A stretch of DNA of 60,072 nucleotides, taken from positions 1 to 60,072 of the forward strand of contig CAYTZJ010000001.1 in the NCBI GenBank assembly GCA_964442475.1, read 5' to 3'. Made by a program: the position numbers and the translations under genes. The notes under the pieces were generated by a model that did no database searches, was not told the DNA's origin, and saw only the letters and a program-made list of their open reading frames with translations. The DNA comes from an uncultured Candidatus Saccharibacteria bacterium (GTDB taxonomy: Bacteria; Patescibacteriota; Minisyncoccia; Phycocordibacterales; DATGWK01). Position 1 is the stretch's first letter; the number at the start of each line of letters is the position of its first letter. Positions 2,166-60,072 of this stretch are shown here, in pieces.

Positions 2166-2219
2166 AAATACAAACGATGCCTCACTCGAACAGTCCCCGA
2201 CTGTTCTCGCGGATCATTG

Positions 2220-2292
2220 TGGGCGATAGAGGACTCGAACCTCTGGCATCAACAACGTCAATGTTGCGCTCTACCAACTGAGCTAATCGCCC
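2220..2292 (-). tRNA. tRNA-Val (anticodon GAC)
   Basis: Reverse complement folds as a cloverleaf: GGGCGAT acceptor, AGCTCAGTTGGTAGAGC D arm, anticodon loop TTGACGT, GGTTCGAGTCC T arm. CCA is not encoded. Confidence 0.9.
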
Positions 2293-2372
2293 TTATTCCG
2301 ATGTCTAAGTCTACCAAAACAGCTAATCGCCCTTATTCCGATGTCTAAGTCTACCAAAACAGCTAATCGCCC
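2281..2372. repeat. 40-bp tandem repeat (2.3 copies) built from the tRNA-Val 5' fragment plus leader
   Basis: 2281-2320 is identical to 2321-2360, followed by a 12-nt partial copy. Each unit holds the first ~23 nt of tRNA-Val and a 17-nt upstream leader. Confidence 0.95.
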
Positions 2373-2486
2373 GATAAACCTTGCCGATTCTAACAGAAAA
2401 AACGATTTATTTAAATACTAAGTCCATAGACTTTGTGCTAATCTATTTCTCAGGAAAAGTACACAAACAAAAGAAAGGAATTCCGA

Positions 2487-3969: not shown

Positions 3970-3996
3970 GGCTAAATTATAGCAAGCTTTTAAGAG

Positions 3997-4083
3997 CGGA
4001 AGTGAGAGGATTCGAACCCCTGATGCCCTTTCGAGCATGCCGCTTTTCGAAAGCGGTGCATTCGACCACTCTGCCACACTTCC
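3997..4083 (-). tRNA. tRNA-Ser (anticodon CGA), long variable arm
   Basis: Reverse complement GGAAGTG...CCGCT TTCGAAA AGCGG, then a long variable arm and GGTTCGAATCC T arm. Confidence 0.9.
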
Positions 4084-4156
4084 ATGGGTCAAGATCAAAA
4101 TATACACTAATTTTTACAGATTTATCAAAAAATGATAGACTTCTTCTCGTTCTTAT

Positions 4157-4200
4157 GACCCTATCATCTATCGATTAGGAGTTTTCCCTCTAACAAGAGT
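4157..4200 (+). pseudogene. Degenerate copy of the 5' half of tRNA-Glu
   Basis: GACCCTATCATCTATCGATTAGGAG matches the first 25 nt of the tRNA-Glu 79 nt downstream with 4 mismatches. Weaker similarity continues towards the anticodon loop. No 3' half is present. Confidence 0.7.
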
Positions 4201-4235
4201 AGAATCGATGGGGCTTAGAATTTAAAGCAAATATT

Positions 4236-4307
4236 GGCCCTATCGTCTATCGGTTAGGACAGTGCCCTTTCAAGGCGCAAAGCTGGGTTCGACTCCCAGT
4301 AGGGTCA
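4236..4307 (+). tRNA. tRNA-Glu (anticodon TTC)
   Basis: Cloverleaf GGCCCTA...GTGCC CTTTCAA GGCGC...CTGGG TTCGACT CCCAG TAGGGTC A. Confidence 0.9.
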
Positions 4308-4317
4308 CACGAGAGAA

Positions 4318-6307: not shown

Positions 6308-6565
6308 ATGGATTTTCACGATAAGGAGTTTTTTGACAAGTTAATGTCGCTTACAGAAGAAAACAATCGAATGCTTCGTCATATTCGAAGATCGGCTTTT
6401 TGAGCGGGTATTACACGTACTGTGTACTGGTTAATTTTAATTGGTATTTCAGTTGGCACATATTATTATGTCCAGCCATACGTTGAACAACTCATCGCAA
6501 CATATCATGCCACCCAAGAAGCAACAACAAAAATCCAAGGTATCGTAAATCCGTTTCAGAGATAG
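6308..6565 (+). pseudogene. Small membrane-protein ORF interrupted by a single in-frame TGA (6401-6403)
   Basis: Hand translation gives MDFHDKEFFDKLMSLTEENNRMLRHIRRSAF*AGITRTVYWLILIGISVGTYYYVQPYVEQLIATYHATQEATTKIQGIVNPFQR. The frame is coherent across the TGA and a clear TM helix follows it. Confidence 0.5.
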
Positions 6566-6602
6566 TCGTATTGTTCCAAATTAACATCGAAAACGAGTAA
6601 AC

Positions 6603-6626
6603 GCCGAGATAGCCGTTTTGGTAGAT
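6603..6626 (+). pseudogene. Partial copy of the tRNA-Phe 5' end
   Basis: GCCGAGATAGCCGTTTTGGTAGAT versus genuine GCCGAGATAGCTCAGTTGGTAGAG, located 73 nt downstream. Confidence 0.75.
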
Positions 6627-6675
6627 AACATCAAGTCACCACAAACATAAATATTGGCAGTAACTTTAAAATAAC

Positions 6676-6748
6676 GCCGAGATAGCTCAGTTGGTAGAGC
6701 ATTTCCCTGAAGAGGAAGGGGTCGCCGGTTCGAGCCCGGCTCTCGGCA
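6676..6748 (+). tRNA. tRNA-Phe (anticodon GAA)
   Basis: Cloverleaf GCCGAGA...TTTCC CTGAAGA GGAAG...GCCGG TTCGAGC CCGGC TCTCGGC A. Confidence 0.9.
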
Positions 6749-6771
6749 CAGTGTAGACAAATACAACCTAA

Positions 6772-15109: not shown

Positions 15110-15212
15110 AAATGTGCGAGATACCGGAATCGGACCGGTGTCTGATGCTTGGGAAGCATCCATTCTGCCACTAAACCAATCTCGCTAAAACATGTATACG
15201 AGCTAACGGGCA

Positions 15213-57883: not shown

Positions 57884-57957
57884 GTGGGCGTACCAGGAGT
57901 TGAACCTGGGACCTCGTCATTATCAGTGACGCGCTCTAACCACCTGAGCTATACGCC
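57884..57957 (-). tRNA. tRNA-Ile (anticodon GAT)
   Basis: Reverse complement GGGCGTA TA GCTC AGGTGGTTA GAGC G CGTCA CTGATAA TGACG AGGTC CCAGG TTCAACT CCTGG TACGCCC A. Confidence 0.9.
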
Positions 57958-58151
57958 CACGCAAACAACAACTTCATTTTTACAAGAACCGAGCGAACCA
58001 TTTATATCGTAATCGATATCAGTGACGCGCTCTAACCACCTGAGCTATACGCCCACGCAAACAACAACTTCATTTTTACAAGAACCGAGCGAACCATTTA
58101 TATCGTAATCGATATCAGTGACACGCTCTAACCACAACAACTATACGCCCG
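57920..58151. repeat. 96-bp tandem repeat (2.4 copies) made of the tRNA-Ile 5' half plus a 57-nt leader
   Basis: 57921-58016 is repeated at 58017-58112. A third, diverged 39-nt copy of the tRNA 5' half sits at 58113-58151. Confidence 0.95.
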
Positions 58152-58260
58152 CAACGTCCTTTCTGGCGAAACCTTAAATTATCAGAAAATGTGCCTTTAA
58201 ACAAGACTGTGCCGGCAACAAAAAACCACGAGCTCCGCCAGTGGTCTTCATCAGAACATA

Positions 58261-58698
58261 TTAACTCTTGAGCTCTTTCTTCACTTTCGTCCAGTACTTC
58301 TCCGTACTAGACTTTTTCCAACCGTTGGGTCCACCGTTCCAAATCCTTGCTCGATCTTCATCCGTTGGCTCTCGACCCAAACGTTTCTTGGTCGCGTAAA
58401 GCCCAATGTAGCATTCGAAGATCTTGATCGAAAGACTTCGGTCGTTCTGGCAGTCCTCGGCACGATAGTTTGTGCCGAGGGCTCTGTTCACATCGTCAAC
58501 ACAAGGTTGGCGAATCTGAAGACAGCCGTAGGCTTTATTCTTCAAATTCGTATCGCCGACGACTGAGTCATCTCCTCCAGATTCCACCTGGATGAGGGCT
58601 TCAACAAGACTTGCCGAGGGCTCGCTTGCTGAAACCTGTGCACCTAGACAAACAAAAGTAAGAAAGCTGAAAAGAACAATCCATTTTTTCGAAAACAT
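58261..58698 (-). CDS. Secreted lysozyme-like / lytic transglycosylase (SLT-like) protein, G+C-rich
   Basis: Signal peptide; catalytic-type motif QVESGGD followed by AYGCLQIR; AAGGA 7 nt upstream of the ATG. Confidence 0.55.
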   Translation of the reverse strand: MFSKKWIVLFSFLTFVCLGAQVSASEPSASLVEALIQVESGGDDSVVGDTNLKNKAYGCLQIRQPCVDDVNRALGTNYRAEDCQNDRSLSIKIFECYIGLYATKKRLGREPTDEDRARIWNGGPNGWKKSSTEKYWTKVKKELKS

Positions 58699-58867
58699 GT
58701 GTAATTCCTTTTACACATTCTTGCTTTCCAGAAACGGCACATGCCGATTCATTGAGCAATTAAATAATATCATTATATAAACAAATTGTCAAGTTTTGAT
58801 GAAAATAAAAAAGGACCCCAGTGCAACGTAGCAAAGGGGCCCTACTCCACAGGAACAAACATCACCA

Positions 58868-59326
58868 TCACATGGCGCCACAGGGAGTGAAACACCCCCT
58901 CGGACACTGATGGTCATCATTACCCCTGTTTTGCACAGGCAGACCACACTGAGTGCAGAACCGAGTCTTGCTCATGGCAAGCGCAACGGTCATGCAATTG
59001 ATGGTGTCCGAAATGACTGCGGGCTTCTCGAGGTTGCCAGCTCTGATCTTGTATCGAGCACGTGCAACTACGTCATCCCTGACTCCAGGTTCCCTTCCTC
59101 CTCCGGAGAAAAGCCGGCGTGAAGGGGTCATCCTCTGACGATGCGCGATGTGCCCCGGCATTTGGCCGAGACCAGGTTCCGGCATGTCGGAATCTGTCAA
59201 AATACCTCGCTGAGTTTGAGTCCGACTCAGCTTGGTCGTTGGGACGCGTGGGCCGAGATTCTGAGCCAAAGGCTTAATCTCTGCCAACCGTCCATCTCCA
59301 GCATGCTTTCCGTGCATCTGACACAT
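58868..59326 (-). CDS. Hypothetical protein, very G+C-rich, C-terminal Cys cluster
   Basis: Start set at Met39 of ORF 58868..59440 (ATG 59326), preceded by GGAGG with a 7-nt spacer. CTQCG...CPRGC near the C-terminus; TGA stop. Confidence 0.45.
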   Translation of the reverse strand: MCQMHGKHAGDGRLAEIKPLAQNLGPRVPTTKLSRTQTQRGILTDSDMPEPGLGQMPGHIAHRQRMTPSRRLFSGGGREPGVRDDVVARARYKIRAGNLEKPAVISDTINCMTVALAMSKTRFCTQCGLPVQNRGNDDHQCPRGCFTPCGAM

Positions 59327-59408
59327 GTCAAAACCTCCGTGATAATGTGAAAAGATCCGTTTCGGTCTGCTGGAATGATAGCACCCATACCTCATTTTGT
59401 CAAACAAC

Positions 59409-59437
59409 AAAAAACCACCCAGTGGGTGATTTTTTTC
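59409..59437. terminator. Weak bidirectional hairpin with flanking A/T runs
   Basis: A6 CCACCC agt GGGTG A T7, a 5-bp stem. Lies downstream of the 16S 3' end on the minus strand. Confidence 0.3.
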
Positions 59438-59585
59438 CATCCTTTATTTTGTTCCGTTCTTTGTTGTCTGTCTTTCCAGACGGTCATGTTGATTTTAGGA
59501 TTCAACAAAATCCATTGTATTCCAATAAATTGGAATACAATACCGACACAGTTACCGATGCATTAAAATGCAGTCAGATGTTTCA

Positions 59586-60072
59586 ATTTGAAATATTCCA
59601 CGAGCAGCTTCCGCTACCCGTGCCTTGTTACGACTTACTCCCTGTCACCGAGCTTACCTTAGGACCGCGCGAGGCGATACTTCGGGTACTCCCGGCTCCC
59701 TTGAGTTGACGGGCGGTGAGTACAAGACTTGAGAACGTATTCACCGCAGTATAGCTGACCTGCGATTACTAGCAATTCCGGCTTCATGGGGTCGAGTTGC
59801 AGCCCCCAATCCGAACTGGCGCATCTTTTATTACGATTAGCTCAGGGTTACCCCGTCGCGGCGCGTTGTAGATGCGATTGTATTATGTGTGTAGCCCCGG
59901 ATATCAGAGGGTCATGCTGACCTGGCGTTATCCTCGCCTTCCTCCCAGCTCAGAGACTGCAATTTTTAAAAATTGTAATCTTTGAGCTGGGCAGTCTCGC
60001 CTGATACATGTAACAGACAACGAGGGTTGCGTTCGTTACCCCACTTAAGGGAACAATTCAAACCACGAACTG
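59586..60072 (-). rRNA. rrs: 16S rRNA, 3' ~480 nt (continues beyond window)
   Basis: Reverse complement contains AAGTCGTAACAAGG (1492 region), TTGTACTCACCGCCCGTCA (1392 region), GCTACACAC, AACGAACGCAACCC, and helix 45 with a GGAA loop. Confidence 0.9.

Follow-up and report, generated by a model that had tools for sequence, protein, structure and literature searches.

The tyrT locus of Escherichia coli carries 178-bp tandem repeats, each of which contains the last 19 nt of tRNA-Tyr (rtT), and ToxI, of the type III toxin-antitoxin systems, consists of 5.5 repeats of 36 nt. The 3'ETS-leuZ sponge, also from E. coli, is a pre-tRNA 3' spacer that base-pairs with small RNAs (sRNAs) through Hfq. Fragments of tRNA genes are left behind by the integration of mobile elements (attL/attR), as reported by Reiter in 1989 and Williams in 2002 and reviewed in PMC9897764. 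Such fragments have been described as products either of element integration or of CRISPR spacer uptake (PMC9897764).

The repeats considered here carry the 5' end of the tRNA gene that they precede. They resemble integration fragments in that a partial tRNA copy lies beside an intact gene, on the same strand, with breaks in loops (PMC9897764). Integration fragments, however, are 3' parts with kilobases of element DNA and an integrase in between, and they decay freely, whereas the copies here are 5' parts, 16-58 nt from the gene, in tandem and with a fixed 3-nt block. The tyrT repeats are likewise short tandem repeats by a tRNA gene that carry its terminal piece and are co-transcribed, but they lie downstream, contain the 3' end, occur at a single locus and lack a conserved substitution block. 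ToxI offers identical tandem repeats of ~36-40 nt in one RNA that could be cut to unit length; there a toxin gene follows and the repeats are not tRNA-derived, whereas here a tRNA gene follows, with no toxin ORF and no Rfam match. In 3'ETS-leuZ, too, a discarded part of a pre-tRNA carries conserved sequence with its own role, but that part is a 3' spacer with sRNA partners, while the element here mimics the tRNA itself. Organelle pseudo-tRNAs and duplication remnants share a local tandem duplication overlapping the gene end; they decay neutrally, in contrast to a block that is invariant over many lineages and tRNA types. The tyrT repeats and the ToxI arrays may be regarded as the nearest formal analogues. 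The defining combination (5' fragments, tens of nucleotides away, tandem, with a fixed 3-nt block) is found in none of the systems compared, and it looks like an apparently undescribed, conserved leader element rather than random decay. The earlier note knew of no described element with this property, and none matching was found in the literature searched, which is not proof of absence.

The window and its four tRNA loci with upstream copies

The window, meaning the whole 60,072-nucleotide stretch of DNA that was analysed, has a base composition of 40% G+C and contains the 3' end of a bacterial 16S rRNA and seven tRNA genes (ARAGORN). Copies of the 5' part lie upstream of four of the seven, those for Val, Glu, Phe and Ile, and each of these four has CAG>GTT in at least one copy. 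The earlier note had reported the replacement at three loci: its Val, Phe and Ile fragments are present where it placed them, on the same strand as their tRNA, and to them must be added a Glu fragment (4157-4197) that it missed.

The tRNA-Val(GAC) gene is intact (2219..2292, minus strand; ARAGORN; Rfam tRNA 70 bits) and is preceded by two 40-nt repeat units of identical sequence. Unit 1 (2293..2332, minus strand) comprises a 17-nt spacer (2293-2309) and a 5' fragment, nt 1-23 (2310-2332), with GTT at 2318-2320; in unit 2 (2333..2372, minus strand) the fragment occupies 2350-2372 and GTT 2358-2360. Both fragments read GGGCGATTAGCT-GTT-TTGGTAGAC, and the core of the unit, UGUUUUGGU, finds its complement, AUCGGAAUA, in the spacer. 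Upstream of the outermost unit, the promoter scan places a putative promoter that fits the clade consensus (2387..2415, minus strand): TTTAAA, 17 nt, TG-n-TAGAAT, with the G1 of the fragment 14 nt further on. In the window, array and tRNA gene are followed by a terminator and unrelated ORFs.

Upstream of the intact tRNA-Glu(TTC) gene (4236..4308, plus strand; ARAGORN), a diverged fragment covers about nt 1-40 (4157..4197, plus strand). It reads GGA-GTT-TTCCC against GGA-CAG-TGCCC in the tRNA, which puts the CAG>GTT change at tRNA positions 25-27 (window 4181-4183). The change had been tied to a universally conserved position of the D-loop, but the tie is not strict, the Glu block lying outside the D-loop. 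The scan finds a putative promoter 15 nt before the fragment (4113..4141, plus strand; TTTACA, 17 nt, TG-n-TAGACT).

The intact tRNA-Phe(GAA) gene (6676..6749, plus strand; ARAGORN) follows a 5' fragment of nt 1-23 (6603..6625, plus strand) that carries T12>C and GTT at 6615-6617 and reads GCCGAGATAGCC-GTT-TTGGTAGAT. Its tail, GATAACATC, recurs in Phe units at four related loci (L131, L196, L134 and L110). The spacer segment ACCACAAAC (6638..6646, plus strand) is complementary to the unit core GUUUUGGU, and a hairpin is predicted between them. Alignment by eye reveals an older, decayed Phe unit (CAGAGATAGTCGTATTGTTCC; 6557..6577, plus strand), the tail of which, ending in TTAACATCGAA, is homologous to the tail of the unit that follows.

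At the intact tRNA-Ile(GAT) gene (57884..57958, minus strand; ARAGORN), two 96-nt repeat units differ at five positions only. The proximal unit (57959..58054, minus strand) consists of a 58-nt spacer, which includes the leader 9-mer AGTTGTTGT (57965-57973, minus strand), and an exact copy of tRNA nt 1-38 (58017-58054) that retains CAG. The distal unit (58055..58150, minus strand) has the identical spacer, with the 9-mer at 58061-58069, and a copy of nt 1-38 (58113-58150) that departs from the tRNA by C11>T, CAG13-15>GTT (58136-58138) and C28>T; C11>T yields TATAGT. Positions 9-17 of this copy (58134-58142) are the same 9-mer as in the adjacent leader. A weak putative extended -10, TGATAATTT (58176..58184, minus strand), lies 25 nt upstream of the outermost Ile copy and is absent from the promoter-scan output.

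Recurrence of the block in related genomes

The surroundings of relatives of the neighbouring thioredoxin reductase (TrxB) provided a comparison set chosen without regard to the feature: 80 loci, 1.2 Mb and 144 tRNAs, all from metagenome-assembled genomes of Patescibacteria/CPR of the Paceibacteria type. The best TrxB matches to the window are 88%, 88% and 69% identical, and an exact-protein look-up of the window TrxB for strain variants returned no record. Among 37 tRNA-Val(GAC) loci, seven (the window and six relatives) have upstream fragments with the GTY block. In these, nt 1-12 of the fragment match the local tRNA exactly or with one change, despite acceptor stems that are genome-specific. 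Single fragments read AGGCGATTAGCTGTTTTGGTAG (L002), GGGCGGTTAGCTGTTTTGGTAG (L003) and GCACGCTTAGCTGTCTTGGTAG (L009), two copies are present in each of L013 and L036, and L025 is degenerate. G13 and T14 are invariant in all 10 of these synteny-anchored copies, at loci that were not selected by pattern, and the spacers are unalignable. This constancy spans lineages with TrxB 55-88% identical, and on a neighbour-joining tree of TrxB the bearers are scattered among non-bearers.

How general is the replacement, and is it enriched over other changes? A metagenome scan was run with TAGCYNNNTTGGTAG, then 23-53 nt, then the intact D-arm TAGCTCAGTTGGTAGAG, leaving the three positions free; the gap is too small to hold two whole tRNA genes. 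It returned at least 120 loci, with 124 matches listed, and the taxonomy of these loci is based on shared tRNA gene order. L137, L140-142, L146 and L156 come from the Hainich wells. Since the pattern fixed nt 8-12 and 16-22 as well as the period range, the conservation of those positions and the distribution of periods are biased, and the free observations are the trinucleotide, nt 1-7 and the tail only. Among the 124 matches listed, the triplet is CAG in 61, GTT in 40, GTC in 20, and CAT, CAA and CCG in one each. GTY thus accounts for 60 of the 63 non-CAG fragments among the matches listed, with a p of about 5e-86 if the 63 alternatives are equiprobable, and no single-step intermediate between CAG and GTY occurs among them. 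The GTY units comprise at least 59 distinct sequences, which form 43 clusters outside the core, and are followed by at least 10 isoacceptor types: Phe(GAA), Thr(GGT, CGT, TGT), Val(GAC, TAC, CAC), Lys(CTT, TTT) and Ala(TGC). Of 97 core motifs, 92 lie within 450 nt upstream of a tRNA on the same strand, and of the remaining five, three stand before tRNA-Thr genes overlooked by ARAGORN because of a group I intron.

On these sequence counts, chance is excluded as the source of the GTY pattern. The suspicion that independent random decay is an unlikely explanation was well founded, and the enrichment of the replacement over other changes, proposed as its test, is borne out by the free triplet. A parent tRNA with a native GTT, which would have undone the case, did not turn up: none of 411 real tRNA genes in 2.0 Mb of fetched related loci has GTY at 13-15, and an origin in such a tRNA was rejected. 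The three loci do not, however, represent three independent events as had been supposed; there is instead a widespread family of homologous repeat units, and the Val and Phe units belong to a single sequence family found again in other genomes.

Anatomy of the repeat units

Each unit is laid out in the same order: nt 1-12 of the tRNA's own sequence, G13-T14-Y15 in place of C13-A14-G15, the D-loop nt 16-22, a biased tail and an A/T-rich spacer. The spacer end resembles an ordinary tRNA leader (..AAATAT|G), and the A(-2)U(-1)|G context before each unit is that of a real RNase P site. In 39 of 60 units nt 1-7 are those of the cognate tRNA; the others have one to three differences, mostly C>T or G>A. 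Clear tRNA homology ends at G22 in the GTY class. Beyond it, a diverged continuation can be followed in several tail families (for example GGTAG-AAT-GCAC and GGTAG-GCC-CAGATC), and in units among the matches listed the tail is biased: purines make up 78% at position 23 (p 3e-4), where C occurs in 2 of 59, pyrimidines make up 83% at position 24 (p 3e-9), and at position 25 A reaches 63% while T, at 34% in spacers, drops to 6 of 59 (10%; p 2e-5). The CAG-keeping class differs in that homology continues into the anticodon arm, with variable end points.

The tails GTAAC, GTATAC, GTCGTT, TTAAAC, (T)AATGCA and GCCCAG recur, each with several isoacceptors; the 11-mer ACATCGGAATA is common to the window Val unit and a Phe unit of L134, and GGTAGRTAACATC is common to Phe units of five sources. 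It follows from these shared tails and the 11-mer that the units are homologous across genomes and partly across tRNA types. At L145 and L200 the unusual D-loop bases of the local tRNA flank the block on both sides, and GTT is still present between them.

Related loci differ in copy number, which ranges from one to 10 or more per tRNA. The shortest period is 34 nt; the gap limits of the scan admitted 38-68 nt only. Arrays of identical units are frequent, with 10 copies in L134, five in L159 and four in L113, and array periods of 34-41 nt. Their neighbours are varied, as at ordinary tRNA loci, with no conserved adjacent gene. An Rfam covariance-model scan recovered tRNA genes only, with nothing above E=1 on the fragments bar a tRNA hit below threshold that falls on the exact Ile copy. 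The units are a lineage-wide class of short repeats situated between the promoter and the 5' end of those tRNA genes that are promoter-proximal, in CPR of the Paceibacteria type.

Promoters and the probable position of the units in the leader

The promoters of the clade were characterized at 247 fragment-free tRNAs from these lineages. TAnnnT is enriched 4-5 fold at 8-15 nt from +1, and TAnnnA is not enriched; promoters of the form TGnTAnnnT peak 8-16 nt before the gene. A TG at -15/-14 is usual, as are TTG at -35 and, from -20 to -16, a tract rich in A or T. Many loci have a promoter of this type 8-16 nt before the outermost fragment, among them the window Val and Glu loci, L165, L178, L143, L156 and L090, and high-scoring sites are rare within spacers. 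Since the canonical promoters precede the outermost copy, transcription probably takes in the units as a portion of the 5' leader, and the outermost fragment would mark the original position of the gene's 5' end.

Origin of the units and constancy of the block

Local tandem duplication of the leader together with the 5' part of the gene, followed by unequal crossing-over, is largely shown to be the source of the units. Its signature is seen at many loci, where the spacer has on its 3' side a second copy of the leader sequence that precedes the fragment (window Val and Ile, L110, L162, L137, L148, L181 and L176). Duplication and unequal crossing-over would keep nt 1-12 and 16-22 tRNA-like. In the window Val locus the tail TTAGACATCGG resembles TTAGAATCGG in the promoter, which suggests a junction between the D-loop TTGGTAGA and a look-alike extended -10. 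Slippage between the promoter -10 and the D-loop was rejected as a general route: it predicts a period of d+25, and the observed periods are 4-30 nt longer.

CAG>GTT can come after the duplication, as it has at Ile. There, four of the five differences between the units are covered by one patch equal to the 9-mer AGTTGTTGT of each spacer, and a templated patch is possible. Homogenisation from the tRNA cannot yield GTY because there is no donor among tRNA genes. Quasi-palindrome template switching within the D-arm fails by reasoning, as it predicts CTA and not GTY; a BHB or D-loop intron fails likewise, with the bulge in the wrong orientation and the downstream gene intact. A neutral remnant of tandem duplication would fit the copy of leader and 5' part, but the substitutions are constrained and not scattered. 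The constancy of G13 and T14, the absence of intermediates and the retention of GTT at L145 and L200, to which the biased tail adds, speak for purifying selection, or else for strongly biased conversion, as the force that holds GTY.

A proposed non-tRNA fold of the leader copy

What might selection be acting on? The reading favoured here, tentatively and with somewhat less than even confidence, is that selection maintains the GTY block because it holds the copy in the leader in a small fold unlike that of a tRNA. The units would be transcribed from the canonical promoter beyond the outermost copy, within the 5' leader of the pre-tRNA, and RNase P, cutting at the real +1, would discard them. 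The identical 5' acceptor strand in the leader would compete for the 3' strand of the tRNA. Selection would hold a block that abolishes all four D-stem pairs and the tertiary-core nt 13, 14 and 15; nt 12-15 would find their partner in 22-25 or, at some loci, in a complementary segment of the spacer, so that the leader copy would be locked in a small hairpin and no second cloverleaf would be nucleated. G, U and Y could face Y24, R23 and G22 in any tail, G and U being the two bases able to accommodate both alternatives at Y24 and R23, which may be the reason for the recurring triplet.

Several features of the units fit this scheme. The changed blocks hit each D-stem pair once, at 13 on one strand and at 23-25 on the other, and A14 and R15 are tertiary-core nucleotides in all tRNAs. 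In the slid register (Y15-G22, U14-R23, G13-Y24 and U12-A25, with the loop UUGGUA), GUY, R23, Y24, A25 and the scarcity of C23 are jointly accounted for. In full transcripts of the Val, Phe and Ile loci, the predicted minimum-energy fold pairs nt 1-7 of the outermost copy with the tRNA 3' strand (P 0.93-0.99); as far as the folding model goes, the leader copy is a serious thermodynamic competitor. Hairpins between core and spacer are predicted in about ten loci. They are specific for GTY, with the native triplet at rank 0-1 of 64, in window Val, L112, L171, L173, L131, L148 and L165, and window Phe, L183 and L190 have hairpins that depend on GTY as well.

Other results weigh against it. The same folding model has GTT raising the predicted advantage of outer acceptor pairing by 1.3-3.7 kcal/mol, and the acceptor strand, the actual competitor, is intact in the units. 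Complementarity between core and spacer is not significant over the whole set (median p 0.58), and a hairpin of this kind common to the class was rejected, real as it is in about ten loci. Folding of the leader only does not favour GTY (median rank 28 of 64). The 12-15/22-25 stem has three or four pairs, mostly G-U, and is thermodynamically marginal, RNAfold favouring another register; covariation cannot inform the slid register, since 13-15 and 22 do not vary. Pairing with U24 should be no weaker for A13 than for G13, but A13 is never seen, and the Ile and Glu cases fall outside the hairpin geometry. About a dozen triplets could disable the D-arm, and the exclusivity of GTY is not fully explained by the model. 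The proposal, made in the earlier note, that the change stops the decoy from folding as a tRNA agrees with the data, every D-stem pair and nt 13, 14 and 15 being altered, but it leaves the exclusive use of GTY unexplained.

Two variants were rejected. Selection for pairing of nt 1-7 with the tRNA 3' strand is at odds with the C>T and G>A mismatches, which break pairs about as often as they keep them. An extended hairpin (8-25, 9-24, 11-22) has weak covariation at 6-27 and 7-26 (z below 2), and C23 is depleted where it predicts enrichment.

Alternative explanations

Could the GTY core be a recognition or processing signal for a trans-acting factor? Such a signal is possible, if unlikely, and might take either of two forms: a single-stranded endonuclease site at which the leader is cut, GU|YUU, or a D-arm mimic, resistant to cleavage or modification, by which a D-arm-binding enzyme or toxin is titrated, the array being a multi-copy decoy small RNA. 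An invariant G13-T14-Y15 between retained nt 8-12 and 16-22, in distant lineages and with 10 tRNA types, is typical of a recognised motif. The arrays of identical 34-41-nt units (10 in L134, five in L159) look like processed repeat RNAs, the units share the RNase P-site context A(-2)U(-1)|G, and the class as a whole is not explained by any RNA secondary structure. GU|YUU resembles the preference of RNase E-type enzymes, R-N|W-U-U; that consensus, however, is loose and prefers A/U at +1, where a third of the units have C. It also counts against a trans-acting factor that no candidate was identified, that no conserved gene lies beside the arrays, whose varied neighbours are those of ordinary tRNA loci, and that a match to ToxI or any other Rfam family is absent.

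The block might also be an unselected product of mutation, a multi-nucleotide patch brought in from a donor, nearby or ectopic, by template switching or short-tract gene conversion and spread between fragments of different tRNAs through their shared D-arm flanks, in a concerted evolution that is possibly biased. This is rather unlikely. It would agree with the single AGTTGTTGT patch from the adjacent leader that explains four of the five Ile differences, with the lack of single-step intermediates from CAG to GTY, with tails common to tRNA types and genomes (ACATCGGAATA; TTAAAC, GTAAC, GTATAC, AATGCA), and with the Ile array, where the young proximal copy has CAG and the older distal copy GTT. 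Yet D-arm donors with CAG far outnumber GTY units, and conversion without selection should erase GTY. A GTYTTGG donor was not found near Val or Phe, the biases of the tail too indicate selection, and an invariant G13/T14 over TrxB identities of 55-88% and unalignable spacers needs purifying selection or strong conversion bias.

A more specific proposal in the same vein as the trans-acting signal is that the arrays are genes for a multi-copy mimic of the tRNA 5' end and D-arm, 34-40 nt long, released from the leader and acting in trans. We consider it quite improbable. Such a mimic could possibly serve as an uncleavable decoy or as an antitoxin, its target being a tRNA nuclease or modification enzyme directed at the D-arm, or else as a tRF-like regulator of translation; GTY would then keep binding and block catalysis.

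It is very unlikely that the unit is an internal or nascent promoter, with arrays acting as tandem promoters that raise tRNA output. The likeness is real: the D-loop TTGGTAG resembles an extended -10 (TGnTAG..), to which GTY adds a T-rich tract, and promoters of the clade read T-tract-TGn-TAnnnT. T17, G18 and A21, present in all units, would be TG at -15/-14 and A at -11, and the position matrix favours G>T at -17. The window Val unit, TTTTGGTAGACT, lies 15 nt from the next +1, as in this genome's own spacing; TGGTAGAAT occurs in L171, L114 and L191, and the 16S promoter of L183, ATGTTTTTGGGCTAGAAT, resembles the core. The clade, however, requires T at -7, as the enrichment of TAnnnT attests, and unit position 25 is T in 6 of 59 and depleted. 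Units score low in the position matrix, and the good promoters are found beyond the outermost copy, on its upstream side. G is not favoured at -19, and higher scores would go to TTT or ATT, which never occur. On the 8-16 nt expected between hexamer and +1 the units divide: those with a period of 34-41 nt have this distance, and the 27 whose period is 47 nt or more do not. An internal extended -10 is rejected for the class, with the window Val unit (TGGTAGACT, 15 nt to +1) a possible lone exception, and the G/T-rich site that the earlier note had offered as one purpose of the change falls, as a promoter-like element of the class, to the depleted T at -7 and the low matrix scores. Related readings were rejected as well. 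TTGGTA as a -35, with a -10 in the spacer, shows no enrichment at the expected positions, and AAATAT as a -10 at -6..-1 would by its geometry start transcription inside the tRNA. The boxA consensus is GYUCUUUAANA, and comparison by eye with the core GCUGUYUUGGU finds the invariant G13 where boxA needs C, so a boxA/Nus site was rejected too.

That the fragments are att scars of mobile elements targeting the 5' part of tRNAs is extremely improbable. In its favour, integration is known to generate tRNA fragments (PMC9897764), many tRNAs of related loci are followed, 110-230 nt downstream, by 3' fragments, and homology breaks at the fixed points 12/13, 22/23 and 37/38. Against it, the gap of 16-58 nt between gene and fragment holds neither integrase nor element, arrays of identical units are incompatible with such an origin, and integration duplicates the 3' part, whereas every fragment here is a 5' part (nt 1-22 or 1-38) that lies upstream of its gene and shares its strand. 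The 29 matches to TAGCYGTTTTGGTAGA in viral contigs all fall within coding DNA, away from any tRNA, and are due to chance. A CRISPR array was rejected because the units of one array are identical over their full length, spacer part included (window Val; L134, L159, L113).

Implications

Partial tRNA copies are usually dismissed as integration scars or junk; here a precise change is kept in them over many CPR lineages and ten or more tRNA species, and the copies directly precede essential single-copy tRNA genes. The signature TAGCYGTYTTGGTAG can be used to locate the element, which also calls for caution in tRNA annotation and in the use of repeat and CRISPR finders on CPR genomes. The loci offer a natural test bed for competing 5' strands in pre-tRNA folding and for the choice of RNase P site. 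If the units do act in trans, they would represent a new class of tRNA-mimic small RNA. The finding implies an unrecognised constraint or function in the transcription, folding or processing of pre-tRNAs in these reduced genomes.

Structured leaders upstream of tRNA genes

Among the related CPR genomes and metagenome contigs (loci numbered L), tRNA-Ser(CGA) is preceded in several relatives by a conserved, structured leader of 125-160 nt (L026, L049, L066, L074, L078, L088/L157), exemplified by L066:13146-13281. At its 5' start stands a fragment, a partial 5' copy comprising nt 1-12 (or 1-18) of tRNA-Ser itself, and this fragment is preceded by the canonical promoter. In several relatives the fragment is succeeded by an AU-rich hairpin of 12 bp that shows compensatory changes and is closed by a CUGC or UUGC loop, and a long-range helix joins fragment nt 7-12 to AGCCRY close to the leader 3' end. 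Comparison with Rfam returned no family match for this leader. In the window (3996-4308), tRNA-Ser(CGA) forms a divergent pair with tRNA-Glu(TTC) around a shared region of ~150 nt; this layout is kept across the relatives, in many of which the two extended -10 promoters overlap in a back-to-back orientation.

A different hairpin occurs in the class of upstream tRNA 5' copies that retain CAG. These pseudo-5' halves carry a GC-rich hairpin in place of the anticodon-stem 5' strand, upstream of tRNA-Gly-CCC (L122, L125, L151, L092, L105, L095) and tRNA-Asn-GTT (L199, L193, L187). Pairing in the stem is retained while its sequence varies from locus to locus. This CAG-retaining class probably comes from other phyla.

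Leaders and gene arrangement in the window

Upstream of the window's own tRNA-Gly(CCC), at a distance of 8 nt, lies GTTAGCTCGTATACA (15193-15207, minus strand), which looks like a D-arm remnant (TTAGCT) fused to GTATAC, a recurrent tail of GTY units (the leader repeats with GTT or GTC in place of CAG), and which has no matching acceptor strand. In the distal, GTT-bearing tRNA-Ile copy, the substitution C11>T changes the hexamer TATAGC to TATAGT, which resembles a -10 element and was detected by promoter scan (58140-58145, minus strand). The tRNA-Ile gene itself lies downstream of the 16S rRNA 3' end (59586-60072, minus strand), beyond 1.6 kb with ORFs, among them one of 145 aa (58261-58698); the stretch from the 16S rRNA up to tRNA-Ile is 57959-60072 on the minus strand. 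No 23S rRNA gene was found within the window, which suggests a fragmented rRNA operon.

Introns, downstream copies and palindromic insertions

Group I introns of ~240 nt occupy the anticodon loop of tRNA-Thr(GGT) in L150, L112 and L100, and these split genes were overlooked by ARAGORN. Two elements stand on their 5' side: a GTY unit and, in addition, another partial copy, which consists of the 5' exon and the start of the intron.

Copies of tRNA 3' ends, exact or near-exact, lie 110-230 nt downstream of the intact tRNA in 16 related loci (e.g. L077, L060, L017, L066, L049). They are 15-23 nt long, run from the T-loop to the discriminator and derive from Ser, Val, Glu and Phe genes. The distance between gene and copy is too small for an integrated element to lie between them.

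Finally, a GC-rich palindrome, CCTGC(C/T)TGCCGGCAGGCAGG, splits the 5' fragment between nt 9 and 10 upstream of tRNA-Phe in L008 and of tRNA-Val in L068, and a shorter form, CCTGCCGGCAGGCAGG, follows fragment nt 27 in L197. The L008 and L068 insertion resembles a small palindromic mobile repeat.
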